64,000 nt of DNA from a bacterium (GTDB lineage Bacteria > UBA8248), in assembly GCA_965221165.1 (NCBI GenBank), contig CBDCRP010000002.1:832001-896000 (forward strand). Reading direction: 5' to 3'. Within the stretch, counting starts at the first letter, position 1. Each line of letters opens with the position of its first letter. A program made the translations under genes and the position numbers. Under the pieces are notes generated by a model that had not been told where the DNA came from, made no database searches, and saw only the letters and a list, made by a program, of their open reading frames with translations. Shown one piece after another: positions 29,941 to 63,911 of the stretch.

Positions 29941-29980
29941 AGAAAACCGGCCCTCACAGGATCAGGAGAGCCGGCTTTCT
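29941..29980 (-). terminator. Intrinsic terminator closing the minus-strand tail operon
   Basis: Minus strand AGAAAGCCGGCTCTC...GAGGGCCGGTTTTCT stem (G-U pairs), starting at the stop of ORF 29979. Confidence 0.6.
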
Positions 29981-30179
29981 AGTTCTTGAATCGTTTGAGA
30001 CTCGTGTTTTTCCCCGGCTCCCGTCGGCTCATCCGCTCCAAGGCCAGACCGGCTTCCAGCGCCTCCTGGTTGAAGCGAAACTCCTCCCAGGAACACCGGG
30101 CGAGAAGATGCGGGGGGAGGCCGTAGGTCCTGGCCTGAAAATGAATCATCGCCAGAAGTTCTTTTCTATGCCGCCGGAA
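29979..30179 (-). CDS. Tail assembly chaperone 'T'-like segment, probably reached by frameshift
   Basis: +1 frame overlapping the end of the chaperone ORF; TYGLPPHLL resembles gpT-like segments. Confidence 0.5.
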   Translation of the reverse strand, partial: FRRHRKELLAMIHFQARTYGLPPHLLARCSWEEFRFNQEALEAGLALERMSRREPGKNTSLKRFKN

Positions 30180-30558
30180 ACTTATCGCCTCCCGGCGCGC
30201 CCTCCCCGGAGGCAGGGGCCGAAGCTTCCTCTTGTAAAGACGTGACGGCAGTGAAAATCGCATCCGCATCCGCCGGAGCGAGTTCATGGATGCTGAGTTC
30301 ATCCGGCAGGCAGCGCCCGGGCTCTTTTTCCGTCATCGAGCCGCGCTCGGGAACGAAGCAGCGCCTTAGTATGCAGTGCACCCACTCCCCCGTAAGCGCG
30401 TATCGCTCCTCTTCGCCCGCCGCGCCGTTCGATACGCCTGCGAACAACTTCGGATACGCAGCCATGTCCAGAAGATTGGGCGCGCGGACAAAACCCTTGA
30501 GCCCCGAGGGCAGGGTGATGGGCCTGCGGCCATGGTTTCTGTATTCTGATATTTCCAC
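30166..30558 (-). CDS. Phage tail assembly chaperone (gpG-like)
   Basis: 130 aa directly after the tail tube gene; ITLPSG..VR N-terminus; overlapping downstream frame. Confidence 0.6.
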   Translation of the reverse strand: MEISEYRNHGRRPITLPSGLKGFVRAPNLLDMAAYPKLFAGVSNGAAGEEERYALTGEWVHCILRRCFVPERGSMTEKEPGRCLPDELSIHELAPADADAIFTAVTSLQEEASAPASGEGAPGGDKFPAA

Positions 30559-30632
30559 GATATCTCCCGTTCGGTTTTCTCTGAATCGAGACTTAATTGT
30601 GGGAAAAAAGAATCCGCCCCTTTGAACGGCGG

Positions 30633-31772
30633 CTAGGTGAAGACGATAGAAATTTCGTCATCACCCGCATCGCGCGCCAGGCGAAACGGCGCATCGTAGG
30701 TCAACAGGCCGTCCCGGTCCCCGAAACCCAGATCCGTGTACTGGCACTTAGGCGCGGTGATCGTGCAGATGTTCCCGGCCCTCTGTCCGACCTGCACGCT
30801 CAGGGGAAGCTGCGCGCCGTTTTCCCAATCGCCGAACACGTCATCGCTGGCCTTGAGCACGGCTTCGGGGTCGAACGAGCCCGACGGAGCGCGACCCGTC
30901 ACCATGGCGTTCACGTGTCCGCCGGATGCGTTGGCGCTCTGGCGCAGAACCACGCTGTTGTTCATGGCGAAGCGGATGTTCGCCGCGTCGAAGTGAAACC
31001 CGCCGAACGAGAAGCCGCTCATGAGGACGGGTTCGGGGGTCTGGGCGTCGTAGGAATCTCCATGGAGCAGGGCTGCATCGCTCACTTCGAAATCGGCCGC
31101 CTCGAACTCCCAATCCACCGTGGGAACGCCATCCAGAGGACAATTGACCGAAAAACTCCCCATGCAGCCCAGATACATGATTCGCAGGCCGTCGATGTAT
31201 GTCGTCAGGCATATTTTCGTGTAGTTCGACTTATCGGATGCGGGCGCATAGGAGACGGAAGTGCCGGGGGTGATGGTCTCCGTCATCGCGCACGCCTTGA
31301 ACAACAGGCCGTAATCCGGCGCGACTCCCGCTACACCTGAACCGCGCAGCTCGGTGGAGAAGGAAACCTGGGCGGAGCGCTTCCCGGGAATCGACGGGAA
31401 GGGCGAGATGCTCGCATCCTTCACCGCGCGTTCTAGCTGCTCCACGCTGACCTCGTGCGCGAAGTTGCCCGCCCGGAACAATTCAGCGGCCACCGCCGGC
31501 CGATCCAGAAGATAAGCCGTGCCCGAAGCGGGCTCAGGATCCCAGGCGTCGTCTAGCGTAATCGTGTCCGATGCCGAGTCGAACTCCTGCACCCTTCTTT
31601 TCTGGCCGAGGCCCATGCCCCGGATCGTGCGCAGCACCGAGCCGTTCCAGAAATCATCTCCTTCTGAGAGCGCGGCGTCCACCAGAGTGGAAGCGTCGGC
31701 GGAATCCGCCACCAGTTCCCTCTCTTCCGTCGCGCCGATGGTTTGTAGATCCATCAATATCGTATCGCCCAT
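30633..31772 (-). CDS. Phage tail tube protein (non-contractile type) with inserted beta domain
   Basis: FSTELRGSGVAGVAPDYGLLFKAC, GCMGSFSV, RAPSGSFDPE, GDRDGLLTY, GDDEISIVFT C-terminus. Confidence 0.8.
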   Translation of the reverse strand: MGDTILMDLQTIGATEERELVADSADASTLVDAALSEGDDFWNGSVLRTIRGMGLGQKRRVQEFDSASDTITLDDAWDPEPASGTAYLLDRPAVAAELFRAGNFAHEVSVEQLERAVKDASISPFPSIPGKRSAQVSFSTELRGSGVAGVAPDYGLLFKACAMTETITPGTSVSYAPASDKSNYTKICLTTYIDGLRIMYLGCMGSFSVNCPLDGVPTVDWEFEAADFEVSDAALLHGDSYDAQTPEPVLMSGFSFGGFHFDAANIRFAMNNSVVLRQSANASGGHVNAMVTGRAPSGSFDPEAVLKASDDVFGDWENGAQLPLSVQVGQRAGNICTITAPKCQYTDLGFGDRDGLLTYDAPFRLARDAGDDEISIVFT

Positions 31773-31844
31773 TCTCTATTCTCCTCCTTCAGGTTTTTGA
31801 AGCGAAGGCGCATCCTTCGCCGGTTTTCATTCCCCGTTATCGAG

Positions 31845-32378
31845 TCAATCCCGCCGGATCCGCTCTATCGCCCGAACCCGGATTTCTGTGTAATGGCAAA
31901 GCACGTTTCCAAACGTTCTCAGTTCGATCAGGTCCACCTGCGGAGGCTGAAGACGCTCCAGGGAGCGAACGCGCGGCGCGCCTGATTCATCGAGGAGGCG
32001 GAGCGTCTTGTCGTCCCTGAAACGATCGCAAATCTCCTCGACCAAATCCTGAAACGCCACTTCGCTGCCCACCGCGTCCTCGGCGCTCATGATTCCAAAC
32101 AGCAAGAACGTGTGGATTCTCCTGGCAAGACCTGCAGGCGTGAAGCCGCCGGGCGCATTCGAGCCGATGGATGCGGCTTCCTCCCCGGCCCTCTCGCGCG
32201 TCAGCACCCAGCCCCTGATTTGGGCGAGGCCATCGCTTGCCTCCCACCGGAAAAGGTCGAGGTATTTTCCCAGGTCGGCCGACCAGCGCTGATAGCTGTG
32301 CACCCGCCCCGCTCCCGCCACACTCGATATTTCCGCCAAAATGGCGTCGCCAATTGCTCTGTATTGTGATTTAGCCAC
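31845..32378 (-). CDS. Phage tail terminator/completion-like protein
   Basis: Lies between the HK97 gp10-like gene and the tail tube; GRVHSYQRW, FQDLVEEICDRF, FGNVLCH; GTG 32378 with GAGGAG. Confidence 0.65.
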   Translation of the reverse strand: MAKSQYRAIGDAILAEISSVAGAGRVHSYQRWSADLGKYLDLFRWEASDGLAQIRGWVLTRERAGEEAASIGSNAPGGFTPAGLARRIHTFLLFGIMSAEDAVGSEVAFQDLVEEICDRFRDDKTLRLLDESGAPRVRSLERLQPPQVDLIELRTFGNVLCHYTEIRVRAIERIRRD

Positions 32379-32880
32379 CGATTCTCCTCGCAATCTCATC
32401 AAGCAGTTCACGAATGCGCCCCTCGATGCGGCTTTGGTTTTCCTCGAAAGCGCGCGCGAACATGCGGCGTCCCGGTATCCCGCGCCGGGCGATCGCTCGA
32501 GCAACGAGGAAGGACACCCTTTCGATATGCCCATCGGGCGGGTCCAGTTTGTGGACCACCCAGCGATACAGAGACGAACCCTCCCTCCAGGGCGGAATTC
32601 TGCCGCCCGGCCGGCGTCCGAATTCCACGTACCTGGCGTAAGGGGTGCGCGAGGCGACCACGCCGCGCAACGCGCCTCGGCCCTCTCCTCTGATTTCGGT
32701 GTAAATACTGCCCCTGAGGTTTCCGCTCGCGCCGATGGGCGTTCGCGTCATTACCTCGCGTCTGAGCATTTCGGTGACCTCGGCCATCGCCTCGTGCGCA
32801 AGGCGAAAAATTTCCGCCTCCTCCCGGCCTCCGGACGGCAATTCCGCCAGGGCTTCAAGCGTTATATATCTACGAAACAC
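32371..32880 (-). CDS. HK97 gp10-like neck/tail-completion protein
   Basis: TPIGASGNLRGSI, PYARYVEFGRRPG, IARRGIPGRRMF. Confidence 0.8.
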   Translation of the reverse strand: MFRRYITLEALAELPSGGREEAEIFRLAHEAMAEVTEMLRREVMTRTPIGASGNLRGSIYTEIRGEGRGALRGVVASRTPYARYVEFGRRPGGRIPPWREGSSLYRWVVHKLDPPDGHIERVSFLVARAIARRGIPGRRMFARAFEENQSRIEGRIRELLDEIARRIGG

Positions 32881-32898
32881 TTCGCCTCTCCTCCCCGC

Positions 32899-33609
32899 CT
32901 AGCGATCCCCGGACGCGCCGTGCGTGAAGTATTCGCCGCGCCTCATCGAGAGGAGCCCGTCCCAATCGAGAGATGCGCCCGTGGGGCCCGCCACTTCGCC
33001 CTCCTTTTGGCCGATATGGGTTTGGTACTTGCGCTCGAGTTCTCGCGCGAGGCGCGTGTATTCCCTGGCCTTGTTCGGGTAATCCACCGAATCCGCCGCG
33101 AGGGTCGGGTTCGAGGATTGGGCGAAGCGGCGGGCCAGAAGGTGACAGCCCTCCGAGGCCGCCAGCCACGCCACGGCGGTCAAATCGTTTCCGGGAACGC
33201 TCGTCCGGGCGTCACCGGCCGTGTGCCCCAGCGTGTAGAACAGGCGAAGCTTCTTGCCCTTTTGCGGGGTGTGGTACAAAAGCCTGAACTTCTCCGCCGG
33301 TGTTCCTTTCCCGTAGATGGTCCAATAACTTCTTCTGAGATAGGAGGGCTTTCTCTCGCCCTGGGGGTATTCCACCGCCCGGACGATAGAAAGAGAATCG
33401 TCCCAGTCCCCGGGCAAGGGAAAATCAAAGGTGACGCCATCGCCTGCGAAATCGGCGAAAGAAGTCAGCGGCCTGTCCTTGCTGTAGCGCGCGAGCGCGG
33501 CGCTCACCAAATCGGCGTAATCCGCCTCCTCGACCCCGAACTCCTGGGGCAGCGCGCCCGCCTTCAACAAAATCTTCACCTCTTTGATGATCGTCTGCCT
33601 GCTGGCCAT
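32899..33609 (-). CDS. Phage head-tail adaptor-like protein
   Basis: Neck position; ALARYSKDRP, VEYPQG, LAADSVDY..KAREY. Confidence 0.6.
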   Translation of the reverse strand: MASRQTIIKEVKILLKAGALPQEFGVEEADYADLVSAALARYSKDRPLTSFADFAGDGVTFDFPLPGDWDDSLSIVRAVEYPQGERKPSYLRRSYWTIYGKGTPAEKFRLLYHTPQKGKKLRLFYTLGHTAGDARTSVPGNDLTAVAWLAASEGCHLLARRFAQSSNPTLAADSVDYPNKAREYTRLARELERKYQTHIGQKEGEVAGPTGASLDWDGLLSMRRGEYFTHGASGDR

Positions 33610-33650
33610 TTCTGCTTCTCCTTTGCTCGCTCACCCGATATGGGCGGGTT

Positions 33651-33992
33651 CTAAGTCTTGAGCGTGAGCCTGGCCTCGAACGTGAACGAAGGCTCCTCAC
33701 CCCCCACCGACCACGCGAGCCTGAGCCAGGGGCCGATGTTCGCGAGCTTGACGAGGGTTTTTCCCACCGAGGTGATCTGCGCGGGCCTGGTATGGACGAA
33801 AAGGGGTCCATCGTCCGCCGGCCCGGCTTCCACCGCGAAATCAAGCGTGGGCGATGCTCCCGCAACCGCCGTCACGTCGATGAACAACAGCGCCTCGGTG
33901 AAGCGGCTCACCTCGAACGCCGTGCTGCCTCCCGCCGCGCCGCGTACCGCCGAGGGAGCGAGAACTATCGTGTGGGTTCGCCTGTCGGACAT
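33651..33992 (-). CDS. Small beta-sandwich virion protein (capsid decoration/spike-base-like)
   Basis: Directly after the capsid gene; beta-rich (IDVTAVAGASPTLDF, WLRLAWSVGG..SFTF); GGAG before ATG 33992. Confidence 0.6.
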   Translation of the reverse strand: MSDRRTHTIVLAPSAVRGAAGGSTAFEVSRFTEALLFIDVTAVAGASPTLDFAVEAGPADDGPLFVHTRPAQITSVGKTLVKLANIGPWLRLAWSVGGEEPSFTFEARLTLKT

Positions 33993-34026
33993 GGCTTCTC
34001 CTTTGAATGCGCAAACGGCCCGCGAA

Positions 34027-36159
34027 CTACGCGGGCGCTCCGCGATAGAAGCCGCGAAAGTCCAGGACGGCGCCGCCATAGACGTGTCTGATCTTGTAGC
34101 GAATCTTGTCGGCGCTGAATCCGCTGCCGGCAGAAGGGTTGTCCTCGATGAACAACTCGGGCTCCCGCATATCGTCCATGAAGCCGATTTCGATAGTGTC
34201 CATCAGGCTCGGGTCGGCGATCATGTACCAATCGTTCGCGTCGGTGAGTTCGGGCACCCACAAAGGCTCCATACCCAGGCGGTTGATGACGCTCGGCTGC
34301 GTGGAGTTCTCGCCCGCGACGACCTTGACGGACGACTGGGTGACGTCGAACGCCTCCTCGAGCAGTTCCGTGGGGTGAACCAGATATTTGGGCCGCGCCT
34401 GCGCCGCTGTCTCGACGCCCTCTTCCCCGTAAAACGTCTGCTGGCCCATCGCCTTGATCCCGGCGATGACGTTGTCATACGTCAGCGCGTTCGTGGAGGT
34501 GTTATTGTGGTTGGCGTGGAACAGCGCGTCCCCATCGTATATGTCCGTGTTGGCCGTGAGGAAATCGAACACGAAGCTGTTCAGGGTGCGCTGGGCCGCG
34601 CGGGCGAGGCGCTGGGGAATCATGCGAATCGCGCCCATGTCGTCGTTCTGGATCATCTCCCAGGTGAGGTCCTCCACCCCGCCGCGCTTGGCCACGGCGT
34701 AGGTCACCTCCTCATCCGTCGGGGAGGTCAGCGCCGGATAGGTGGCCTGTTCGGCGACCTTTTGCAAATCGCCGTAGCCGCCGACGCGCACCCGGCGATT
34801 CGTCCTGAAATCCTTGACGGGCGTCACGGAGGAGACGATTTTTTTCCACTGGTGGAATCTCTCGTCCCGGAAATCGCGCAACATGGCGCGGCGGATCGAA
34901 TCCCCGAACGCCTCTCCCCACGTGCTCGTCTGCAAGGAGGCCGAGAGGCGGCGCACTCCGTTCCAGTTCTCGGCGGCGCGATGATAGTGGAACGTCTCGG
35001 CAAAGAACTGGCGCGGGGTGAGCCGATGGCCCGTGAAATCCTGAAACGCCTCGCTCATGAAGCGATAGGGCCGCTCCCCGTCGACTACCTGATCGCGGGA
35101 ATTCCAAAGCCCGTCGAGGGCCGCCTTTTTCCTGTCCGCCTCATCGCGCATCACTTCCGCGCGTGCGCCGAACCCCCGAAGCGCGCCGCTCGCCGTGAGT
35201 TTTTCCAGCGTGGACGCCTCGATGCGAATCGCTTCTTCGATTTCCTCCTCCGTGAAGCTCCCGCCCCCGAATTGCGCGCGCATTTTCTCCTGAACCGCCT
35301 CGGGCAGTGTGGACGCCGCAAGTTTTTGCGCGAGCACCCGGCGCGACGCGGCCCCCTGGGTACTGGTTTCATTCTTCATGGCGCCTCCTCCATTTTCCTT
35401 GAAGTCCAGTTCGAGGCCCGCGTCTTCACAGGCCGCGAGGAGTTGTTGCGGCGTCCATCTGTCGCCGAGCCTATCGGCCGATGCGGGCGCCACGCTTTTG
35501 AGTTTTTTCCCCAGTTTTTCGAACATCTTCACCTCCGATACAGTGGAATGATTGGCGGCGAGACCCAGAATCCCGCCCCCGAGCTTGCCTTTGTGCACGA
35601 TGTCGACGGAATGGACCGCCAGAATTTTCTCGAAATGCAAAACGAGCCCCTCGCCCTCCTCTCGAAACTCCGCCCGGGCCATCACATCGAACGAAAACCC
35701 GAACGGCTCCTCGAGACCCCGGGCCAGCGCATCGTGCGCCAGCTTCTGGAACCACGCCGCCGAGCGCGAAACCGCGAACGTGCTCAAAAGCCCCTCCTCG
35801 CCCATGCGGACCTCGCGGTGCCAGCCGACCAGATCCTTGATGTCGGGGCCGCCCGACCCGGTGTGGTTCGCGAACGCCTGCGCGCCCTCGAACAAGGGAG
35901 CGGCCTCACGCAGAACATCCCGGGGCAGGAACCACTCCCCGTCCCTCGAATAGCCGGCCCGGGCGATCAGCACGTCGAAATCCCAGGCTTCACCCGGCGG
36001 CTGGGCTTCTTGCCCGATGGCGCGGATGAGGTGGCCATGCAGCCTGACGGGGTGAGAATCTTTTTGCGCTTCCGCGCCCGCCCATATGCGATTCATCCAT
36101 CTTTTCAAGGGAAACTCCTTTTCTCGTTGGTCTTTTCGGATTCCGGTTTCCGGCGGCAT
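34027..36159 (-). CDS. Fused prohead protease-scaffold-major capsid protein (Mu gpT-like capsid)
   Basis: N-terminal protease-like motifs (ANH, DLVGW, GFSFD, SVDIV), helical linker, C-terminal capsid motifs (LTWEMIQNDD, ARAAQRT, LFHANHNN, PKYLVHP, IEIGF..REPELF, YKIRHVYGGAVLDFRG); start uncertain. Confidence 0.88.
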   Translation of the reverse strand: MPPETGIRKDQREKEFPLKRWMNRIWAGAEAQKDSHPVRLHGHLIRAIGQEAQPPGEAWDFDVLIARAGYSRDGEWFLPRDVLREAAPLFEGAQAFANHTGSGGPDIKDLVGWHREVRMGEEGLLSTFAVSRSAAWFQKLAHDALARGLEEPFGFSFDVMARAEFREEGEGLVLHFEKILAVHSVDIVHKGKLGGGILGLAANHSTVSEVKMFEKLGKKLKSVAPASADRLGDRWTPQQLLAACEDAGLELDFKENGGGAMKNETSTQGAASRRVLAQKLAASTLPEAVQEKMRAQFGGGSFTEEEIEEAIRIEASTLEKLTASGALRGFGARAEVMRDEADRKKAALDGLWNSRDQVVDGERPYRFMSEAFQDFTGHRLTPRQFFAETFHYHRAAENWNGVRRLSASLQTSTWGEAFGDSIRRAMLRDFRDERFHQWKKIVSSVTPVKDFRTNRRVRVGGYGDLQKVAEQATYPALTSPTDEEVTYAVAKRGGVEDLTWEMIQNDDMGAIRMIPQRLARAAQRTLNSFVFDFLTANTDIYDGDALFHANHNNTSTNALTYDNVIAGIKAMGQQTFYGEEGVETAAQARPKYLVHPTELLEEAFDVTQSSVKVVAGENSTQPSVINRLGMEPLWVPELTDANDWYMIADPSLMDTIEIGFMDDMREPELFIEDNPSAGSGFSADKIRYKIRHVYGGAVLDFRGFYRGAPA

Positions 36160-36207
36160 GCCGGAGGCCGCCGCCTCGGCGAAAAAGCCGGCGGATGCGA
36201 CGGCGAC

Positions 36208-36259
36208 AATCTAGGGCAAGGGGTCGTAAACACGGGCAGCGCAAATGCGGGGAAATGCG
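36208..36259 (-). promoter_or_regulatory. Shared phage-module promoter element, copy 1 (head-tail operon)
   Basis: Plus strand AATCTA 36208-13, AAATGCG 36243-49 and 36253-59; 29-nt gap. Confidence 0.8.
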
Positions 36260-36469
36260 TATTAGACGTGTTTTTATGCGGAATTTTTATTTTTGCTAAT
36301 TGTAAATTTTAAGTAAATGCGGTAACATACGGAAAATTCTGGAGTTGCGGACGATGCGGGTGGTCCCGGCGTCTACCAATTCTGGATTCTTCGCCCGCCA
36401 CTCGGAAATTCCCGGATTCGCCGAGCGACAAAGACCGCCCCTAATACGACGTGGACGAGGGTGCATATC

Positions 36470-37765
36470 ATGTGGGGCGTCGCTCAACCGGCCTTGAATT
36501 TCATCCAGAACCTCTCCTGGAACCATGTGATCGACATCGGGATCATGTGGTTTCTGCTCTATCAGGTCTACATCCGCTTCAAGGGCACCCAGGCGATGCG
36601 CCTTCTCGTGCGCGTGTTCGCGGTATGGCTCATCTACCTCGCCTCCCAAGCCGCGGGCCTACACCTGACCTCATTCCTGCTTTGGGCCATCTGGATCGCC
36701 GTGCTCATCCTGTTTCTCATCAATTTCCACGGAGAAATCCAAAAGATATTCTTTCAACTCAACCCGGTGCGCAGAATCTCCACCCTGCTGCGCCGGGCGA
36801 TGCGCATCCGCCTGCCGGACGAGAGGGTCGCCACCATCGCCGAATCCGCATTCTCCCTCGCCTCCAAGAGTCTGGGCGCCATCATCGTCGTGGAACGCCG
36901 GGATTTGACCGAAGCGCTGCTGAGCAGCCCGGGCGAGGAGATTGAGGCGGATATCCGGCCGGCGCTGCTTGAAACCATTTTCTTCAAGGGAGCGCCCTAC
37001 CACGACGGCGCCGCCGTGGTCCGCGAGAACAAGGTCTCGCGCGTGGGCTGCCTTTTGCCTCTTTCCGAGAACCGCGCCCTGCCGCCGGAGTTCGGCACCC
37101 GCCACAGGGCGGCGGTGGGCATCACGGAGCGCTGCGACGCCCTGGCGATCGTCATATCCGAGGAGCGGGGGGAGATCACCTGCGTGGAAGGCAGCCATGT
37201 AAAGACGATAGAACATGAGGAGGAACTCGCCTCCTGGCTCACCACGCGCCTGCGCGCGGCCCGCGAAGCGGGGCAAACGAAAGGACGCATATCGCTCGCG
37301 CAGGTTTTCGAGAACTGGAAGCCCAAGCTCGCCGCCCTGGCCGCCGTCATCTTCCTTTGGTCGCTCGGCGGGCAGGAACGTCAAAATCCGCAGAATTTTT
37401 TCCCGCAACTCGAAAGCAAAGTGGAAGAGGAGTTCCGGGTTCCGCTCCATTATTACAACATTCCCAGTGGCGTCATCCTGCCGGACGATTTGGCGAAAAA
37501 CATCAAAATTCGCATCAGGGGCAGGCGCGACCTGCTGAACTACATCGACGCCACCCGCCTGCGCATGAATGTGAACCTTGCCAAAATGACGCCCGGAGCG
37601 CATTCGCGCACGTTCTCCGGACGCGATATCGACCTGCCGAGCGGCCTCGAATTCCTGAGCGCGGAGCCAAAAACCATCCAGTTGAACCTCGCCAAAGCGC
37701 CTAGACCTGAGAAAATGACGAAATCGAGCGCTTCCGCTGAAACAAAAGAATCCTCGAATTTCTAA
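36470..37765 (+). CDS. cdaA: Diadenylate cyclase CdaA fused to a YbbR (CdaR-like) domain
   Basis: Three N-terminal TMs, HDGA and GTRHRAA DAC motifs, ENWKPKLAAL TM then YbbR-like repeat. Confidence 0.88.
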   Translation: MWGVAQPALNFIQNLSWNHVIDIGIMWFLLYQVYIRFKGTQAMRLLVRVFAVWLIYLASQAAGLHLTSFLLWAIWIAVLILFLINFHGEIQKIFFQLNPVRRISTLLRRAMRIRLPDERVATIAESAFSLASKSLGAIIVVERRDLTEALLSSPGEEIEADIRPALLETIFFKGAPYHDGAAVVRENKVSRVGCLLPLSENRALPPEFGTRHRAAVGITERCDALAIVISEERGEITCVEGSHVKTIEHEEELASWLTTRLRAAREAGQTKGRISLAQVFENWKPKLAALAAVIFLWSLGGQERQNPQNFFPQLESKVEEEFRVPLHYYNIPSGVILPDDLAKNIKIRIRGRRDLLNYIDATRLRMNVNLAKMTPGAHSRTFSGRDIDLPSGLEFLSAEPKTIQLNLAKAPRPEKMTKSSASAETKESSNF

Positions 37766-38198
37766 GACCATTTTTTTCAGCCACTTAAATTTTCTGCATT
37801 TGAAAATTTGCTTTTTTCACTCAAAGAACCCATATTGAACCTACCGGATCATGGCCGCCGAAACGCTCAGATCGCTTTGATGAGCGGCATGGGCGAACCA
37901 TCTCAGATGGTGCTTGGCCTGGCCGAGTGAGGCGGGAAGGAGCCGACGCAGCAAGCGGTTCCGGTCCGGTTTAAGGGAGCCCTCAAAACAAAGGGGGATG
38001 CGATGATATCCACGATAAATCGCTTCAGCCGTGCGGAGACGCCATCCTCCCCGGCCCCATCGCATCAGCCGGGCGGGGAGGAAACCTCAAGGCTGATGCC
38101 TTTATAAAGGCGACAGAACGCCTTTTTGAGGTGAGATGAATTCTCACCCTGGAAAAAAGACAAAAGAGAGCGGGGCGCAATGTCCCGCTCTTCTTTTT

Positions 38199-38411
38199 TT
38201 ACGAACCTCCGGCGACCTGGTTCTTCGCGTCGAGTTTCCGCATCTCGATTTCCAGTTGCTGGAGTCTGTTCTTGATCATGTTGAAGTCGTACTCGAATCC
38301 CTCGGCGAGCAACATGAGACCCCGATACAACTGGTGTTTCTCCGGCTCTTCTTCCTCGCTCACCGAATCGAGCATTTCGACGAAAACCTCTCTCGCATGA
38401 TGAAAGCTCAA
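38199..38411 (-). CDS. Hypothetical 70-aa coiled-coil protein
   Basis: Helical heptad pattern, AGGGGG upstream of TTG. Confidence 0.55.
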   Translation of the reverse strand: MSFHHAREVFVEMLDSVSEEEEPEKHQLYRGLMLLAEGFEYDFNMIKNRLQQLEIEMRKLDAKNQVAGGS

Positions 38412-38552
38412 AACGCTTTCCCCCTTTTCGAATGAGAACGCACACTACGAAGCAATAAACCTTTTCGCGGGAAGAAATCCCCCCCCCCCGCATCCCTGCT
38501 AGAATCCATCGCATCGACAAATAAACCACAACGCTTTCAAGGAGTCATCTTC

Positions 38553-40748: not shown

Positions 40749-40760
40749 AAGATAATACGC

Positions 40761-42937: not shown

Positions 42938-43492
42938 ATGAACGAAATGACGAAGGAAAAGGAGAAAATTCTCGTCTACGAACCCGTGGCGGAGGCTCCG
43001 GGCGCGAGCGCCGTCATGGCCGAGCGGCCCGAGAGCTTAAACGGCAAGAGCGTCGGTCTCATCAACAACACCAAGGATTTCACCGATGAGATTTTCGATG
43101 TGATGGGCGCCGCGCTTGAAAAACAGTTCCCCGGCGTGCGCGTCGTGCGCTACCGGAAAGAATCCGTGAGCGGCGCATCGCCCGCCCTCATGGAGCAGGT
43201 GGAAGGAGAGTGCGACGCCGTCGTATCCGCACTCGGCGACTGAGGCTCGTGCACGTCGTGGAGTATCCACGACAGCGTTGCTCTCGAGAAAAGAGGGCTG
43301 GCCACGGTCACCATCGTCACCGACGCATTCGAGAATTACGCGAAGCAGCTCACCAAGCTGCACAAGATGAACGAGCTTCCCCTCGTCGCACTTCCCCATC
43401 CCATTGCGGGCAGAAAGCGCGAGGAGGTGGATGAGATGTCGGCGAGAGCGAGCGAATTTCTGGCGCACGCCCTCACACAGGCGAGCGGCTGA
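42938..43492 (+). CDS. UGSC-family selenoprotein (Sec at TGA 43241-43243)
   Basis: ALGD-TGA-GSCTSWSIHD..LEKRG continues in frame to TGA 43490; GGAGG SD. Confidence 0.9.
43255..43273 (+). promoter_or_regulatory. Bacterial SECIS-like hairpin
   Basis: GTCGTGGA-gta-TCCACGAC starting 11 nt after the TGA. Confidence 0.7.
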
Positions 43493-43499
43493 TATCGGC

Positions 43500-44600
43500 A
43501 TGAGTTCGCCACAGCCTGCCCGCCAGATAGCGCTCGATGAAGACCCAGGCGCGATATTCGAGCACTTCTACGAAGAAGGCTGGACGGACGGGCTGCCCAT
43601 CATCCCACCGACGGAAGAGCGCGTCGCTGAGACCTTACGCTTCACGGACTATGCGCCGCATGACGTCATCGCCAACGTTCCGCCGAGAAACGCGCCCGCC
43701 ACGTTGGAGAACATCGCCATAAACGCCGTGATGGCGGGCTGCAGACCGGAGTATCTGCCCGTGCTCATCGCCGCAGTAGGGGCCATGACGGAACCCGCCT
43801 ACAACCTCTACGGCCGCCAGACGACCACCCACCCCGGCGCGCACCTGATGATAGTCCACGGGCCGGTACGAAACGAACTGGAAGTCAACTGCCGCCAGAA
43901 CGCCTTCGGCCAGGGCCGACGCGCGAACGCGACGCTCGGGCGCGCGGTGAGGCTCCTGATGATGAACGCCGGCGGCGGCATCCCCGGCGTGACGGACATG
44001 GCCACCCACGGGCATCCGGGAAAATACTCCTACACCATCGGTGAGGACGAGGAGGGAAGCCCCTGGCAGCCATTTCATGTCGACAGGGGTTTCTCGCCCG
44101 ATACTTCCGCCGTCACCATGCTCTGCGCCGAGTCGCCCCACAACGTGAACGATCTGGTGAGCAAGACGACCCATAAGTATCTCGGCACCGCGGCTTCGGC
44201 CATGAGTCACTTAGGCGCCAACGGCGTCTACCGGAGCGGGCTGCCGAGCGAGCAGATGCTGGTGCTGACCGCCGAGGCGGCGACGTGGCTGTCGGATCAG
44301 GGGTGGACGAAGGCCGACGTATCCCAGTTCATCTACGAAACGGCGCGCCAGCCGATTCGCCTCATGCGCGACCGCGGCGGCTTCGACATGACGCCGCTCG
44401 CTCCTTTCGTGAACCTCGATGAGGATGAGGACATGGCCCCCATCGTCCCGAGACCCGAAGACATCCTCATCGTGGTCGCAGGCGGCCACGGCCGCCACAT
44501 GCAGGCCGTCCTCACGGCGAGCTACAACCTGAGCGTCACCAAGCCCATCACCAGAAAAGACGGAACGCCGGTTGGGTCGGTAAGGGAGTTTGTGGAGTAG
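43500..44600 (+). CDS. UGSC-associated conserved protein
   Basis: GWTDGLPIIPPT, IAINAVMAGCRPEY, RANATLGRA, GHPGKY motifs recalled from UGSC partner proteins. Confidence 0.8.
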   Translation: MSSPQPARQIALDEDPGAIFEHFYEEGWTDGLPIIPPTEERVAETLRFTDYAPHDVIANVPPRNAPATLENIAINAVMAGCRPEYLPVLIAAVGAMTEPAYNLYGRQTTTHPGAHLMIVHGPVRNELEVNCRQNAFGQGRRANATLGRAVRLLMMNAGGGIPGVTDMATHGHPGKYSYTIGEDEEGSPWQPFHVDRGFSPDTSAVTMLCAESPHNVNDLVSKTTHKYLGTAASAMSHLGANGVYRSGLPSEQMLVLTAEAATWLSDQGWTKADVSQFIYETARQPIRLMRDRGGFDMTPLAPFVNLDEDEDMAPIVPRPEDILIVVAGGHGRHMQAVLTASYNLSVTKPITRKDGTPVGSVREFVE

Positions 44601-57304: not shown

Positions 57305-57336
57305 CGCACACCTCACGTCTTTTATGAGAAATTTAC

Positions 57337-59082: not shown

Positions 59083-59580
59083 GTCTCGCCTTTCTGAAAA
59101 AAGGTTGGAATCACCGTCGGTGACATATTTAGGGATGGGAGGAATATAACCGAGGGGATGGGGCTAGTCCAGGTATGGAGGGGTGATTCAGCGAGAGCTT
59201 TTATGCCGGAGAATACGCTCTACGACTCTTACCTATTGGCAAAATCGCGCAGATGGGAATGTTGTGGCCAAGTAGATTGCTAAAGACATTTACAACTAAA
59301 TCACACCAATTTAAGAACAATTCCATAAACTGATTAATGCCCAACACAACATTTTGTAGATAAATGAGTTATTTTTGATTTTTATCCACAAAATGTGGTA
59401 TATTTTGAAACTTACTAGCCTTTGGAATGGGGCACCAAAGGATAGTAAGTTTAACGACAGACGAACTAACTGAAAACGTGAAGCAACATAAGATGTGGAT
59501 AAAGATTGAGTGCCTCCGATCTTCACCATCGAAGGCACTCATGCTGATGTGTTGCCGGGAGCATCAGCAACCGGGGGCAG

Positions 59581-59772
59581 ATGGACAGGCCATTTCGCTT
59601 CTATTATCTGTCAACCCCGGCAATAGGAGGAAGGGATATAACCCCTTCCAAAGGCTCTGAAGATTACATTGTGATCTTCAGAAAATCTATTACCCTTCCG
59701 AATGGGAGAGTCATTCATGCCAGCGATTATGGCAAGGTGGCTTTCCCCATTCGAATTAAAAAGAAAGGGTAG
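59581..59772 (+). CDS. Small basic protein (IFRKSITLPNGRVIHASDYGKVAFPI type)
   Basis: AGGAGG at 59625-30 precedes in-frame ATA 59638; followed by a perfect hairpin; start uncertain. Confidence 0.5.
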   Translation: MDRPFRFYYLSTPAIGGRDITPSKGSEDYIVIFRKSITLPNGRVIHASDYGKVAFPIRIKKKG

Positions 59773-59781
59773 TAGATGAGT

Positions 59782-59813
59782 GGGCATCGGGGAGTGGACA
59801 CTCCCCGATGCCC
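59782..59813. terminator. Perfect 15-bp hairpin between convergent small ORFs
   Basis: GGGCATCGGGGAGTG-ga-CACTCCCCGATGCCC. Confidence 0.7.
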
Positions 59814-59816
59814 TAC

Positions 59817-59939
59817 TTATTTCGGAGCAATTTTTTTATCCGCCGCCTTGAACACGGCCTTAGCGATTTGCTGAGCCGTAGCAGGTATCCGTTCTATAAC
59901 GTTTTTTACTGGCCTGCCTGGTGGTTTAGCATTACTCAT
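59817..59939 (-). CDS. 40-aa basic peptide, copy A (not in ORF track)
   Basis: MSNAKPPGRPVKNVIERIPATAQQIAKAVFKAADKKIAPK; paralog at 60811-60933. Confidence 0.6.
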   Translation of the reverse strand: MSNAKPPGRPVKNVIERIPATAQQIAKAVFKAADKKIAPK

Positions 59940-60179
59940 GAGACACCCCCACGTCGAATACCTTTTTTAGATATCCAATGTTCCTTTTATTGTAATTTTT
60001 TGAGGCGGATAGTTACATACGATGCAACGTGTTGCAAATGTAACCGAAATGAAATTTTTGTCAACAATATTTTCACGACTTTTCCACGCCTTATCCACAA
60101 GGCAATGGGTAACTTTCCGCCTAATTAAGTATATAATCCCCCAAATTTTTTTCAGTCGTACGCGGCCACTCGAAGCCAT

Positions 60180-60644
60180 TCAGGCGGCGACGGCTCTTGG
60201 CTCATCCAGCATATTGTGTTGGGCTGTGGGTTTCTTCACCGTCCTTACTTGCACATAGGGCCGATGCTCGTCTGCGTTTTTCTTTTCCATTCCTTCGGCT
60301 TCAATATCCCCTCGGCGCACTGCTTCGACGGCTTCAGCCCATTCTTGTTTCGTCTCTTCGCAGATTTCGTTGAAGAATGTCTCCACTCGCTGTTTGAACA
60401 TCGAGAAATCGTCGGCTTCCTCAGCCATGTCGAACAGGACGGACGTGTAGGTCCGCCGGAACGTGGAGAATGCCTCATCCTCGTTCTGTCCGGTCGCGGC
60501 GATTCCACCCGGCTGTATTCCGTACATCCATGTGGAATCATCCTCTTTCATCCCGAGGAGCGTTCCCATCATTTTCACATTCGCCACGAAGCCGTTTCCT
60601 TCCACCTTGTCCGAGAAGGTAAAAAAGAACGGAAACGCGCTCAT
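60180..60644 (-). CDS. Hypothetical protein with HicB-like segment
   Basis: AAGGAG SD; QPGGIAATGQNEDEAF resembles the HicB partial RNase-H fold motif. Confidence 0.6.
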   Translation of the reverse strand: MSAFPFFFTFSDKVEGNGFVANVKMMGTLLGMKEDDSTWMYGIQPGGIAATGQNEDEAFSTFRRTYTSVLFDMAEEADDFSMFKQRVETFFNEICEETKQEWAEAVEAVRRGDIEAEGMEKKNADEHRPYVQVRTVKKPTAQHNMLDEPRAVAA

Positions 60645-60810
60645 GTCACTCTCCTTTTCGGTTTTTGAAAAACCTTATCTCCAGATAGACTAATCCATCT
60701 GTCTTATCCGTGTTTCAAATTCGTTATGATTGTTCCATTATTTGCCCTGAAGAACTTTTCTGTCAAGGAAGGTAATTTCAGGCGACAACGGGTCCAACCC
60801 TAAAAACTCC

Positions 60811-60933
60811 CTATTTTAATACAAGAATCTTCGTATTCGCCGCTCGATAGATGGCTTTAGCAATTTCTTGTGGCGACGCCGGGGCCGGTTGCACAACGTT
60901 CTTCACCGGACACCCCGGTGATTTGGTACTCAT
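60811..60933 (-). CDS. 40-aa basic peptide, copy B (not in ORF track)
   Basis: MSTKSPGCPVKNVVQPAPASPQEIAKAIYRAANTKILVLK. Confidence 0.5.
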   Translation of the reverse strand: MSTKSPGCPVKNVVQPAPASPQEIAKAIYRAANTKILVLK

Positions 60934-61111
60934 TAGATGCCCCTTTGCCAAGCGAATGAATTCGACCGCCGTCTCACACAGCGCACCCTATTACATAACT
61001 TGTAGCACTTTGCAACTTTTCAGCACACTTTTTTCGCATTTTATCAACACAACCAAAGTTATATATTATTCCCTTTTTTACCAATCCTCCGGAATTTTCC
61101 GCCCCCCCCCA

Positions 61112-61683
61112 TCACTCGATGCGCTCCTCGAGCTTGCGCGTCGCCTCGGCGGTGAGTTCGCATATCTTCTCCATCACCTCGGGATGATCGCGGAGCGATT
61201 CGCGCACCTCGTTGACAATCGCCATCTTGGCGGCGGCGAACCCGTCCTCGTACTGAAGCCTGAGACGCTCGGCCGATATGCGGCTGTTCTCGAGCGTGTT
61301 CACCATCTTCGCGATTTTTTCGGGGGTCAAGCCCTCGAAGGATTTCCGTTCCATGTGCGAGACGGCCTCGACCGCCTGCGCCATCAGCATCCGCCGCGCG
61401 GCGGCGGCCACCTTCTCGCCCGGGTCCCTGCCCTCACCGTCGTAGGCCATGACTTCTTCGATCAGCTCATCCACCATGGCTTCGACCTGCTTACTCTTGC
61501 GGATGCCCTCGAGCAGGCGCCGTTGTGCCTGAATACGGAAGATATCTGCAGCGGCTCCCCGGTGGCGTTCTCGAAGGCCCGCGCCACTTCCTTGTAGGTC
61601 TTCCCCTCGGCGAGCATGGGATCGACGAACTTCTCCGCGTCGTATCGCTCGATTTTCGCACGGCGTCCCCGTCTTCTCTCCAT
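61112..61683 (-). pseudogene. DUF3486 / Mu gp27-like small terminase, frameshifted near 61524
   Basis: N-terminus GRRAKIERY..TYKEVA..ISSVFRH in one frame and helical C-terminus RRLLEGIRK..SAERLR in another; ATG 61683 overlaps the gp26-like stop. Confidence 0.72.
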
Positions 61684-62015
61684 CACAACTCTCCCACGAG
61701 GATGTCGGGCGACCCCGATACGGCTCCCTCGAGCAGGCCCCGCCCCCGGCGGGTGAGGTGGACCTCGTAGTCGGTGAGCAGGCGGCCGAAACCGCCCGGG
61801 GTGCGCTTTTCCACCAAGCCCCGCTCCGCCAGATCGTCCACGAAGGCCTCGAGCGTCTCCCGGCCGATGGGCGCGCCGTCCTCGTGGTGGCCCGCCTCGC
61901 GCAGCGCGCTCCACAGAAGAAGGCTGCCGACGCTCGATTTCTCCTGAAAGGCATCCTGGTAATAAAGCGTCTTCAATATGTCGCCGCGCAGAACGCGGGC
62001 CGCCAACTCGTTCAC
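61683..62015 (-). CDS. Mu gp26-like winged-helix protein
   Basis: LRGDILKTL..LAERGLV..LTRRGRGLLEG..PDI; AGGAGG SD; lies just before DUF3486 as in Mu-like phages. Confidence 0.72.
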   Translation of the reverse strand: MNELAARVLRGDILKTLYYQDAFQEKSSVGSLLLWSALREAGHHEDGAPIGRETLEAFVDDLAERGLVEKRTPGGFGRLLTDYEVHLTRRGRGLLEGAVSGSPDILVGEL

Positions 62016-62152
62016 GCCAAAACACCTCCTGGATAACTTTGACCCTCAAACGCCGGACGCGGCACGCCTGGATTCGGCGTCTCTCGCGGATGATGAAATA
62101 CGCCCCGGGCGTCTCGGCACGCCCCTCCCCCGCGCGCGGCGGGGATTCGGGC

Positions 62153-62204
62153 AATATAGGGTGCGGCGCAGGTTCCGGCGGCCCCGTAAATGCGGGCAAA
62201 TGCG
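62153..62204 (-). promoter_or_regulatory. Shared phage-module promoter element, copy 3 (gp26-terS)
   Basis: Plus strand AATATA 62153-58, AAATGCG 62188-94 and 62198-204; 29-nt gap. Confidence 0.8.
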
Positions 62205-62267
62205 GGGGCCTGTGCGTTGAGAAAAAAAACCAGCAAGCCCACAATGCTCCCCGGGGAGGACGCTTCG

Positions 62268-62666
62268 ATGCGCGCGCGCGACTGGAAAATCACCGCCACG
62301 GCCGCCATCTGCACGCTGTGGTTCTTGTGGCTGCCCGATTCGCCGGCCTCAGGCCACGGGGAGGAGGAAATCCTCCTGTTCGCCTATCTGGCGGAAGAGC
62401 AAAACCTCCTGAGAATCTCGACCGCCATCGTGGGCGGCATCATCCTGGCGATGGGCGCCTTTATCACCCAGCAATCGCGCGCCGAGGCGAGAGAGGGAGC
62501 AGGAGCCGAATACTCGGGCTTCAAGGTGATGGCGCCGGGGCTGCTCGTCACCTGTCTGGGCGTCGGCGTGTTGTTCACGGCCGCCTTCATCCTGCCCGAG
62601 CAGATCAAGATCGTGCACGATCATCCTCTGGGCCAATCCGAGACAAAGGCTCACGAGAGGCGCTGA
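62268..62666 (+). CDS. Hypothetical membrane protein
   Basis: GGAGGA SD, signal-like N-terminus, two TMs (APGLLVTCLGVGVL). Confidence 0.6.
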   Translation: MRARDWKITATAAICTLWFLWLPDSPASGHGEEEILLFAYLAEEQNLLRISTAIVGGIILAMGAFITQQSRAEAREGAGAEYSGFKVMAPGLLVTCLGVGVLFTAAFILPEQIKIVHDHPLGQSETKAHERR

Positions 62667-62720
62667 ACCACCCGCGCCCGGCAAACCGCGCCGGTGAATT
62701 TTCTGCGACCGGGAACCCTC

Positions 62721-63143
62721 TCACCTCGCTTTTCCCGTCAATTTCTCGACGGTGCGCAGAGCGCCGAGACCCAGCATCCCCAGGGTGAGCTCTAAAAGCC
62801 CCTCCGCCGAGACGGGATAGGGAACCAGCGCGCCGCCCATCAGCACCTGCCGCGTCCAGAGCCAGGCGCCCAGGGCGTACTGGGGGATGAAATAAAAGGC
62901 GAGCGACACGCCGCAGGTCCACAATATGAACGGCCTCCCCCCGGCGACGAAGGCGCTGCGGTGCGCCGCCTCGATTTTGTTTATCTCGTTCTGGGCTTCC
63001 AAGGGGCGCATCATCAGCTTTTGTTTTATCGCCTCCGCCGCCCGTCTCTCATCGGGCGTTTCGACGAACTTGTCGATGACGTTGGCGACGCCCTCGGCCG
63101 CCGTAACGACGCCTCCGCCGATGAGTTTTTCGAAAAAAGCCAT
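62721..63143 (-). CDS. 3TM holin (GTA_holin_3TM-like)
   Basis: IDKFVET.DE, INKIEAAHRSAFVAGGRP, LGMLGLGALRTVEK. Confidence 0.85.
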   Translation of the reverse strand: MAFFEKLIGGGVVTAAEGVANVIDKFVETPDERRAAEAIKQKLMMRPLEAQNEINKIEAAHRSAFVAGGRPFILWTCGVSLAFYFIPQYALGAWLWTRQVLMGGALVPYPVSAEGLLELTLGMLGLGALRTVEKLTGKAR

Positions 63144-63556
63144 CACGCGCTCCTCATCATCCCGGCGACCCTGCCCGCCCGGGCGGGCAACTCGCGCGCG
63201 TAATCGGAATCGAGCGCCTCCGCAGCCGCTCCCTCGTAATCGCCCTCCGCAAGCGCCGCCCACATTTTCCTGAAACCAAGAAGGCTCGGCACGCCCATGT
63301 TGTAGGCCATGTTCAAAACCGCGCGCTGTGCGCCGGGCCTTAAATTCGCATATACCCCGTCGACGGAGGAGCGCTCGATTTCTTCGGCCATCAGCCCCAG
63401 GCGATGCCGAAGAAGCAGTTCGGCTTCGGCCTCGGATATACCGTCCTCGATAAGCGTCCCGTAGCCGATGGTCTGCTTGCCCCTGGTGTCCAAATACACC
63501 CTGGGCTTGAAACCCTCCTCTTGCTTGATCTCCTCGATCAGTTCGTCCGTGAGCAT
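63143..63556 (-). CDS. T4-type (GH24) lysozyme/endolysin
   Basis: EEG..YLDTRGKQTIGYG catalytic E-D-T, NMAYNMG, AAAEALDS, RAGR. Confidence 0.9.
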   Translation of the reverse strand: MLTDELIEEIKQEEGFKPRVYLDTRGKQTIGYGTLIEDGISEAEAELLLRHRLGLMAEEIERSSVDGVYANLRPGAQRAVLNMAYNMGVPSLLGFRKMWAALAEGDYEGAAAEALDSDYARELPARAGRVAGMMRSA

Positions 63557-63774
63557 GGCTTCTCCTCATTCATCAGCGAATCCTCGCCGTCATTTGCCTC
63601 TCTCATCAGACGCCGCAGCGACGCCGCTCCCTTGTGAGCGCCCACGCGGCCCGCGTAGGCCTGGCTCGAGGCCAGGATGCGTCCGTTTTTCGCCCTGACG
63701 CGGAAACGATGCCGCCCGGATTCGTCCTCGAAAATCTCGATGGGACGCCGTCCCGATCTTTTCACGGCGCGCAT
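63538..63774 (-). CDS. YegP/DUF1508 family protein
   Basis: EIFEDESGRHRFRVRAKNGRILASSQAY. Confidence 0.78.
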   Translation of the reverse strand: MRAVKRSGRRPIEIFEDESGRHRFRVRAKNGRILASSQAYAGRVGAHKGAASLRRLMREANDGEDSLMNEEKPCSRTN

Positions 63775-63911
63775 GTCGAAACCCCCAGGTAAATCCCCAA
63801 ACCCAAAAGACACGCGGCGACGGCGGCGAGGCGAAAGGCAGCATGCCTGCCGTTCACCCAGCGCCACACAATGGAGCCCGTTCGCTTTTCGAATTCATTT
63901 TTCTCGGACAT
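63762..63911 (-). CDS. 49-aa single-TM protein (not in ORF track)
   Basis: MSEKNEFEKRTGSIVWRWVNGRHAAFRLAAVAACLLGLGIYLGVSTCAP; GAGG SD; overlaps the yegP-like start. Confidence 0.6.
   Translation of the reverse strand: MSEKNEFEKRTGSIVWRWVNGRHAAFRLAAVAACLLGLGIYLGVSTCAP

Follow-up and report, generated by a model that had tools for sequence, protein, structure and literature searches.

A strong in silico candidate for a new gene transfer agent-like viriform, with Mu-like late genes spread over four loci in Nitrospinota/Tectomicrobia-labelled bacteria

The stretch of DNA analysed here (the window) comprises 64,000 nt, positions 832,001-896,000 of contig C2 of a bacterial genome designated G000, and carries three islands of phage late genes set among ordinary host genes. 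Together with a fourth island on contig C3, these make up an element of about 22 core genes distributed over four operon-sized loci (islands C, B and A in the window, island D on C3). The gene set looks complete, as it covers head, packaging, neck, tail tube, chaperone-position, tape-measure candidate, tail-tip and lysis genes. In our reading, the element is probably an independently originated viriform resembling a gene transfer agent (GTA). Its source would be a Mu-like siphophage whose late region was endogenised long ago and then retained by the host. Because the loci lie 0.26-2 Mb apart, as measured between island D and the head locus in eight closed genomes, the element cannot package itself, and a selected set of head, packaging, tail and lysis genes that is unable to package itself fits only a GTA among known systems. 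With distances of up to megabases between loci, and with no gene left for replication, integration or transposition, such particles could move only host DNA. The element is thus put forward as a strong in silico candidate for a new GTA-like viriform, known here from its genes alone. No description of such an element was found in the literature searched on GTAs, including that on Nitrospinota and Tectomicrobia.

All three window islands lie on the minus strand. Island C (61112-63867) holds the lysis genes and the small terminase gene (terS), island B (44612-47687) the large terminase (terL) and portal genes, and island A (29979-36159) the capsid, neck, tail tube and chaperone-position genes. 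Genes were called with a method based on GC content at third codon positions (GC3), and families were assigned by Pfam and PHROGs scans of the window proteins. These scans bear out the three islands with the gene order, strand and coordinates proposed in an earlier reading of the bare sequence (hereafter the original prediction). The host-gene gaps, estimated there at about 13 and 8 kb, measure 13.4 kb between C and B and 8.45 kb between B and A. They do contain ordinary host genes, assigned by Pfam to an ABC transporter, M24 and S15 peptidases, an adenylate cyclase, DUF520, cdaA, luciferase-like monooxygenases and a deaminase. The host-like GC content also noted there is reflected in overlapping GC3 ranges, 0.77-0.83 for phage-derived genes versus 0.73-0.89 for host genes. 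In line with the same prediction, no integrase, transposase, replication or repressor gene was found among the annotated open reading frames (ORFs) of window positions 25-64 kb. Integrase, replication and lysogeny genes were not found in the flanks of island D either. The sole tRNA of the window, at 7665, is a tRNA-Cys and the only Rfam match in the window.

Conservation was counted in 22 same-genus genomes, all metagenome-assembled genomes (MAGs) labelled Nitrospinota/Tectomicrobia, and four of these (G007, G020, G006 and G019; the comparison genomes) served for detailed work on synteny, selection and motifs. Soil, sponge and groundwater are the sources of the capsid-bearing relatives in general, which are MAGs that carry the labels Nitrospinota, Nitrospinaceae or Candidatus Tectomicrobia. 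The capsid (78-95% identity), the ATPase gene of terL and the island D gene D3 (69-93% identity) are each found in 20 of the 22 genomes. The portal is full-length in 20 of the 22, with an additional 26-28-aa C-terminal remnant in G009, and the gene for a 110-aa island C protein occurs in 19, being missing in G001. There, holin and terS are present (C1:170727-172278), and the 750-nt gap between them contains no detectable 110-aa gene. Marker matches are single-copy and free of internal stops in 19 of 20 bearers, the exception being G015, whose portal gene is broken into three pieces and has one internal TGA. Absence or decay in close relatives, named in the original prediction as a reason to abandon it, is therefore not the pattern across these 22 genomes.

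The arrangement of the loci is conserved as well. Searches by tblastn with all window proteins against 60-kb stretches of the comparison genomes found the islands and their host neighbours colinear in all four, which answers the synteny check suggested at the outset. An exception within this colinearity is G006, in which the ABC-transporter/peptidase block is absent. Gene order and flanks of island D are likewise unchanged across the four genomes. In G010, island C (C1:2850488-2852884) lies approximately 119 kb from island B (terL at 2730777), versus 13 kb in G000, suggesting that dispersal of the loci is still ongoing within the genus.

These layouts bear on whether the islands could belong to an active, self-transmissible prophage, or to a contiguous prophage that was misassembled into pieces. 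Such an origin might be entertained given that the nearest phage, Mae-JY22, is complete with the same late order and that the loci of two relatives, G032 and G027, are contiguous. However, independently assembled closed genomes repeat this split layout, host genes included, which excludes the misassembly that the original prediction had listed among its possible refuters. The host genes between the islands are also in place in G009, a genome without the element, no transposase, integrase or replication homologue was found among the annotated ORFs or by search with the early proteins of Mae-JY22, and island D lies up to about 2 Mb away. This explanation is extremely improbable.

Selection was assessed as the ratio of nonsynonymous to synonymous substitution rates (dN/dS) by the Nei-Gojobori method (NG86), comparing G000 with the four comparison genomes. 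Two spurious antisense ORFs (36296-36649 and 38065-38529) served as negative controls. Element genes have ratios of 0.04-0.62 overall, including 0.09-0.48 for D1-D7 of island D, versus 0.73-3.3 for the controls. The highest values, 0.38-0.62, belong to a DUF1508 gene and to 62190-62666. Element genes and their host neighbours have equal dS, such as 0.2-0.5 in the comparison with G007. The dN/dS check proposed in the original prediction thus returned purifying selection at host-like synonymous divergence. The first of the control ORFs (36296-36649, minus strand, 117 aa, antisense to cdaA) is a high-GC artefact, as is a longer plus-strand ORF at 33658-36312 (884 aa) antisense to the capsid gene.

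Descent was examined with an element tree built from six concatenated proteins (1818 columns) and a flanking-host tree built from eight proteins (2378 columns), the latter using host markers linked to the element. Both include 13 genomes, with L023 excluded from each as six of the 14 genes are absent. All major clades are common to the two trees, and pairwise distances of element and linked host markers correlate at r = 0.98 over 78 pairs. The requested tree comparison therefore gave near-congruence with the linked flanking-host tree, apart from one local conflict.

Two genus members, G008 and G009, are without every locus queried (capsid, terL ATPase, full-length portal, D3 and the 110-aa gene). 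In G009, the host backbone is kept at 77-92% protein identity and each window island is gone. The gap from the cupin gene to cdaA is approximately 0.7 kb there versus 6.5 kb in G000, and the lysozyme, holin, 110-aa and terS genes have disappeared. The portal remnant remains beside the ortholog of 43404-44600, with a decayed promoter motif just upstream of it. The host-flank tree places G009 within the genus crown as sister to L021 (support 94/99). Because G009 is nested inside the genus and its islands have been cleanly deleted with scars left behind, the element was lost in this genome. The loss of four loci together argues that they form one functional unit.

Relatives beyond the genus document further stages. 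In L028 (G041), the portal, capsid, neck, tube and chaperone genes, a 485-aa ORF and D1 lie in one stretch, with the terL ATPase gene approximately 11 kb away in two pieces with a stop. In L032, the genes from capsid through chaperones are followed contiguously by a D7-like gene and then D1. The class-level relatives G032 and G027 have contiguous portal-capsid-neck-tail loci. In L035, terL (two ORFs) and portal precede a luciferase-like gene and cdaA, after which comes the capsid; this host insertion is smaller than that of G000 and in the same place. In G023 and L036, deletions join cdaA or a truncated capsid gene to remnants of D2, D3 and D4, and the portal is frameshifted. Taken together, relatives show contiguous (L028, L032), part-split (L035), stably retained four-locus, decayed (G023, L036) and deleted (G009) stages. 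They suggest that in the ancestor of the family the late region was contiguous and lay next to cdaA and DUF520, and that it was split at operon boundaries and kept in the genus.

The two neighbours are worth describing in their own right. In G000, the region 36160-37765 has the capsid operon promoter divergent from cdaA (diadenylate cyclase), and terL lies directly 3' of a DUF520/YajQ-family gene on the same strand (47819-48259). These nucleotide-signalling genes also flank the element in L025, L035, L036 and G023. A regulatory link between the element and these neighbours is possible.

The closest phage counterpart of the element is Microcystis phage Mae-JY22, whose capsid aligns with 97% of the query at 31.9% identity. 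In the 121 remaining phage records, matches extend over the C-terminal half of the capsid at most, and a single-sequence query of IMG/VR returned a single relative, at 28% identity. No close relative among free phages was found, the best phage capsid being 32% identical and the best IMG/VR match 28%; nesting among free phages was an outcome that the original prediction had held would count against it. Each of the computational checks that this prediction named as possible refuters was carried out, and none contradicted it. The annotation of Mae-JY22 includes a DUF3486 protein and Gam. Its late order runs amidase, DUF3486, terL, portal, protease-capsid, three neck genes, tube, two chaperones, tape measure and five tail-tip genes, which corresponds module by module to islands C, B, A and D. 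Homologous proteins of phage and element are 39% identical for the portal, 32% for the capsid fusion and 29-35% for three neck proteins. In contrast to Mae-JY22, the element has a dissimilar terL, modules separated by host genes and a tape-measure candidate that has moved. Mae-JY22 early genes (repressor, transposase and Gam) have no tblastn homologue in G000. A search of G000 for the Mu transposase family PF02914 gave no match, and the control genomes were silent too, making this search uninformative. The description of the element as Mu-related is therefore supported for the head module and the gene order, and not supported for terL, which is GpA-type. Other Mu-like transposable siphophages include the D3112/B3-like Pseudomonas phages and RcapMu.

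A shared sequence motif connects the four loci. Upstream of all five island operon starts in G000 lies a 17-nt tandem motif, CGCAKTTSCCCGCATTT, which consists of two CGCAKTT half-sites 10 nt apart and is followed 26-29 nt on by a TAnnnT box resembling a -10 element. On the minus strand of the window, the copy CGCATTTCCCCGCATTT occurs at 36243-36259 upstream of the capsid operon, with TAGATT 29 nt later, and again at 47774-47790 upstream of terL, with TATATT 29 nt later. The copy CGCATTTGCCCGCATTT at 62188-62204 (minus strand), followed by TATATT, lies upstream of the 110-aa gene and terS, and is found in the same place in G007 and G020. The lysis operon has its copy at C2:896013-896029, 13 nt beyond the window end, and D1 has one at C3:1159111-1159127. 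In the comparison genomes, the motif and the -10-like box are conserved at island starts, with the spacers having diverged, and within their 60-kb regions the motif occurs at island starts only. No copy was found upstream of terL in G019 or upstream of the 110-aa gene in G006 and G019. The co-regulation of the islands that the original prediction had postulated gains support from this promoter-proximal motif common to all island operon starts. In having for every module a promoter of its own, with an activator-type site upstream, the element would resemble Mu, whose late promoters are activator-dependent.

The genome-wide distribution of the motif is more complex. G000 has 22 exact copies versus none in a reversed-sequence control, and 17 of the 22 lie away from the islands, in intergenic regions preceding host genes. 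Among ten downstream ORFs of such non-island copies that were scanned, six had Pfam matches (mnmA, aceE, two tctC, a cyclase and SCO1). Exact copies number 18-55 in each of 18 element-bearing genus members, G000 included. None is found in the element-less G008 and G009, none in G015 and one in G019 (both element-bearing), and none in any of 18 genomes of other genera. Tolerating as many as two mismatches still leaves G008 and G009 near control level. In G015 and G019, island starts account for six of the eight sites that have no more than one mismatch. A general host promoter was considered as the identity of the motif and dropped, given the lack of exact copies in G008 and G009 and the near-exclusive island association in G015 and G019. 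The motif is instead read as the element's own late-promoter operator, which would later have been amplified in most of the genus.

This amplification allows a variant in which the element is likewise an independently evolved GTA, in an uncultured Nitrospinota/Tectomicrobia-related family, with the 18-55 operator sites per genome having taken on a role. The particle regulator would then also act on host genes, controlling for instance aceE, mnmA, tctC and SCO1. Alternatively, the sites could serve across the chromosome for entry of the HTH-bearing TerS, with motif-plus-repeat cassettes as entry points and packaging starting from defined dispersed sites, not at random. We consider this variant rather unlikely.

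Repeats of this kind were observed in G000, where the motif is paired, in approximately 20 intergenic cassettes, with an AT-rich array that lies 85-130 nt downstream, sometimes with a second motif beyond it. The arrays consist of four to seven TGAAAA units with a period of about 10 nt. For example, cassettes lie at C3:1663776-1664000, C2:422918-423330 and C3:1019283-1019741. G000 has 32 such arrays, 19 of them with a motif within 500 nt. An Rfam search with two of the motif-plus-array cassettes gave no match. The arrays were rejected as a component of the system, being specific to G000 (34 pattern matches versus 0-2 in the other 40 genomes). A different repeat is present just after D7 at L066:13343-13400 (G007) and L067:4980-5039 (G020), where the half-site is repeated five to seven times in tandem as CCCCGCAAWT units with a 10-nt period. 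This suggests a protein that oligomerises along DNA.

Conservation could also reflect recent ancestry or hitch-hiking, if the islands were a slowly decaying remnant of a cryptic prophage. The terS frameshift of G000 (described below), the decay in G023, L036 and G041, and the full loss in G008 and G009 would all be expected of such a remnant. However, about 22 ORFs have stayed open at dS values of 0.2-1.2, with dN/dS well below that of the antisense controls. The 17-nt motifs are exact across species and have no exact copies in genomes that lost the element, and four unlinked or loosely linked loci are kept or lost together. A cryptic remnant is accordingly a quite improbable explanation. The element does resemble cryptic prophages in being phage-derived, not self-transmissible, and lost or decayed in some lineages; it differs in that its genes are intact and selected and its promoters are conserved to a dS of about 1 within the genus.

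Within island C, the first ORF behind the promoter (63538-63867, minus strand) matches Pfam DUF1508 (4.3e-9). It is 59-61% identical in G007 and G020 with dN/dS of 0.53-0.56, has no match in G006 or G019, and is a variable rather than a core gene. It is followed on the same strand by an endolysin at 63143-63556, a GH24 phage lysozyme (Pfam Phage_lysozyme 1.7e-13; dN/dS 0.20-0.27), and by a holin at 62721-63131 with three transmembrane segments (PF11351, GTA_holin_3TM, 1.2e-11). The holin is the most constrained gene of the element, with 81-98% identity and dN/dS of 0.04-0.15. Between the holin and the 110-aa gene lies 62190-62666 on the plus strand, which is a host gene because it is retained in G009, where there is no element.

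The 110-aa protein (61683-62015, minus strand) has no Pfam or PHROG match and is the most conserved product of the element, with 83-95% identity and dN/dS of 0.07-0.25. Atlas leads to winged helix-turn-helix families, scoring 0.85-0.88, give a weak lead that it may be a winged-helix DNA-binding protein. An AlphaFold2 model from a five-sequence alignment had a mean predicted local distance difference test score (pLDDT) of 53.7 and was judged unusable, and a PDB search with a profile of the protein returned nothing meaningful. The terS gene (61112-61683, minus strand) is Mu gp27/DUF3486-like with an N-terminal helix-turn-helix (HTH), its Pfam match to Phage_Mu_Gp27 (0.0055) being below the cut-off. 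The original prediction had regarded it as broken, and this assembly does contain a 1-nt deletion near 61520, which a three-frame reading places between the N-terminal HTH and the C-terminal part. The two parts are in one frame in all four comparison genomes. As for the 'gp26-like' label given to a gene of this island, and the 'decoration' label given to one in island A, no search backs either.

Downstream of terS, positions 59100-61100 form a 2-kb stretch of low GC content (0.47 versus 0.62 around it). It holds a 154-aa ORF without a family match (60180-60644) and two similar peptides of approximately 40 aa. The ORF has a counterpart in G007, and none was found in G020, G006 or G019. This low-GC stretch has the look of a recent accessory insertion that lies outside the element.

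In island B, terL was originally taken for a single gene and proved to be two ORFs on the minus strand. The ATPase half (46629-47687, 352 aa) matches GpA_ATPase (8.8e-18) and phrog_675 (8.8e-52), with dN/dS of 0.19-0.23. The nuclease half (45985-46632, 215 aa) matches positions 362-550 of phrog_675 (9.5e-11), with dN/dS of 0.13-0.31. The ATPase stop codon overlaps the nuclease start codon (ATGA), the nuclease N-terminus reads MSAPHRFCGIDTGD, and the switch of frame is visible in the GC3 profile. An (A/G)TGA junction is kept in all five other genomes examined, namely the four comparison genomes and L035 from another genus. A frameshifted pseudogene was ruled out by this junction together with the constraint on both halves, and the two-ORF terL is, by this sequence comparison, a conserved split and not a lesion. 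The portal gene follows at 44612-45988 (minus strand; phrog_10963 1.3e-45; dN/dS 0.12-0.18).

Island A begins with a 710-aa fusion of prohead protease and major capsid protein (34027-36159), encoded, as are all the genes of this island, on the minus strand. It matches Phage_capsid_4 (8e-46), phrog_29592 (7e-135) and phrog_4523, 'major head and protease protein' (5e-52), with dN/dS of 0.10-0.20. A PDB search with the fusion as a single sequence returned nothing meaningful. Next comes a 142-aa head or neck protein (33651-34079) with no Pfam match and a weak PHROG match (0.0016), 69-83% identical among relatives at dN/dS of 0.30-0.36. It is followed by a 236-aa head-tail connector (32899-33609; dN/dS 0.19-0.28) that is 29-31% identical to neck genes of Mae-JY22, G032 and G027. 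A tail-completion protein of HK97-gp10-like/Neck1 type (32371-32880) matches Pfam HK97-gp10_like (8.1e-8) and phrog_5 (7.4e-17). The 229-aa protein in the neck or tail-terminator position (31845-32534; dN/dS 0.23-0.30) is homologous to neck genes of Mae-JY22, G032 and G027, and its true start is probably downstream of 32534. The tail tube gene (30633-31772) matches Phage_tube_2 (4.5e-11) and phrog_290 (2.3e-20), with dN/dS of 0.15-0.21. No sheath gene adjoins it, which fits the non-contractile tail that the original prediction had proposed.

The last two ORFs of island A, at 30166-30558 and 29979-30302, overlap in the position of the tail chaperones (G and G/T), and relatives have kept both. 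Conservation of the second sets in just past the stop codon of the first. A programmed frameshift is plausible; a search of the overlap for a canonical slippery heptamer found none. Host genes (cupin, cofE) directly follow these ORFs, and the tape measure and tail tip were therefore to be expected elsewhere in the genome.

They were located by tblastn with tail-side ORFs of G032 and G027, which led to island D at C3:1159193-1166085 in G000. Seven co-directional ORFs, D1-D7 (381, 177, 403, 313, 233, 127 and 563 aa), lie there between an M23 peptidase and CinA. None has a Pfam match, and a search of G000 for the tape-measure family PF10145 gave no match. D7 (C3:1164394-1166085) has weak PHROG tape-measure matches, the best at 5.4e-7, and its homologue in L032, where these genes are contiguous, follows the chaperones and directly precedes D1, the place expected of a tape measure. 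These observations make D7 a tape-measure candidate and D1-D6 six candidate tail-tip genes, and they suggest that the tape-measure candidate was relocated to the end of the tail-tip operon in G000. For D3, Atlas leads (leads only) point to Phage-tail_3/TipJ clusters at 0.95-0.97, and a PDB search with its profile returned nothing meaningful. In G007 and G006, a variable gap of 1-2.3 kb and a separate motif copy precede D7. Of the genes that the original prediction had expected elsewhere, those of the tape measure and tail tip are thus accounted for by island D; the activator is not, no Mor-family match having been obtained in G000.

Multi-locus layouts are known for GTAs. According to PMC5026251, the Rhodobacter capsulatus GTA (RcGTA) is encoded at at least five loci and VSH-1 of Brachyspira hyodysenteriae at two. 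RcGTA resembles the element in having a particle gene set without replication or integration genes, several loci, vertical descent and purifying selection (PMC5026251). Further similarities are lysis genes lying apart from the structural genes and a holin of the same Pfam family, PF11351. Unlike RcGTA, the element has a protease-capsid fusion (Phage_capsid_4), a split GpA-type terL and a DUF3486-like terS with an HTH. In addition, its head, packaging and tail genes are themselves separated by host genes, and its host is labelled Nitrospinota/Tectomicrobia. Family matches give no homology to the RcGTA cluster, the overlap being limited to the holin family and the Atlas lead to Phage-tail_3. The mismatch with RcGTA claimed in the original prediction is upheld by the families found (Phage_capsid_4, GpA_ATPase, phrog_10963 and Phage_tube_2), and the origin of the element appears independent of RcGTA. 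VSH-1 shares with the element the separation of GTA genes into loci, two in its case (PMC5026251). It differs by description in having unrelated proteins and belonging to another phylum, whereas the element has four loci and a shared motif. Satellites such as phage-inducible chromosomal islands (PICIs) and capsid-forming PICIs (cf-PICIs) also differ, as the element is dispersed, has its own tail genes, and showed no integrase or primase.

A domesticated particle need not serve gene transfer. It could have been retained for altruistic lysis and release of extracellular DNA, for killing competitors by adsorption or for anti-phage defence, with packaging incidental. Conservation, purifying selection, co-loss and a shared promoter fit any particle use that benefits the host, and the strongest constraint of all falls on the holin. 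However, constraint is no weaker on the terminase halves, terS, portal and capsid than on the tail and lysis genes, which would be unexpected if lysis or adsorption alone mattered. Established killer particles (tailocins) are not known to have heads or terminases. Unlike a tailocin, the element has a capsid, a portal, terS and both terL halves, all under constraint. We regard such other uses as unlikely, though not negligible.

Several observations weigh against the interpretation as a GTA-like viriform. No spanin was recognised among the lysis genes, and the division of terL into two ORFs makes for a putative motor arrangement. If the terS frameshift of G000 is real and not an assembly error, this strain may be defective. 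TerS of the element keeps its N-terminal HTH, so that sequence-specific packaging would be possible; RcGTA TerS is not known to have a specific DNA-binding domain. Retention is not universal, since outside the genus copies are in decay (G023, L036 and the terL of G041). The motif is not exclusive to the element in 18 genomes, as dozens of sites unrelated to the element have it there too. No activator gene was identified, a search of G000 for the Mor/C-type family PF08765 giving no match, and G001 has 24 exact motif copies yet lacks the 110-aa regulator candidate. Finally, the congruence of the trees was measured with host markers linked to the element, and the trees conflict at one short branch concerning G000 versus L011 and L027 (support 100/99 against 99/99).

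From the gene content and its conservation, we infer expression, particle formation, random packaging and transfer, for which the following course can be proposed. A dedicated factor would bind the tandem CGCAKTT half-sites, centred near -50 relative to every operon, and switch on the four loci in a few cells. Proheads would assemble on the portal and mature via the fused protease. TerS and the split TerL would fill the heads with whatever DNA they engage, non-contractile tails would assemble on the relocated tape measure, and the holin and lysozyme would release the particles.

Experimentally known GTAs stem from very few independent domestication events. If the reading as a GTA-like viriform is correct, the element would add a GTA origin in another phylum, within an uncultured lineage of soil and sponge, and from another type of phage, namely a transposable Mu-like siphophage. 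The conserved two-gene TerL, with separate ATPase and nuclease, would be unusual among packaging motors. The split along operon boundaries, with each piece carrying the same motif, offers a model for how the late region of a prophage may be dismantled with its coordinated expression kept, and the motif itself provides a cis-element handle for finding the regulator. More broadly, the element bears on how often phages become host-owned devices for gene exchange.

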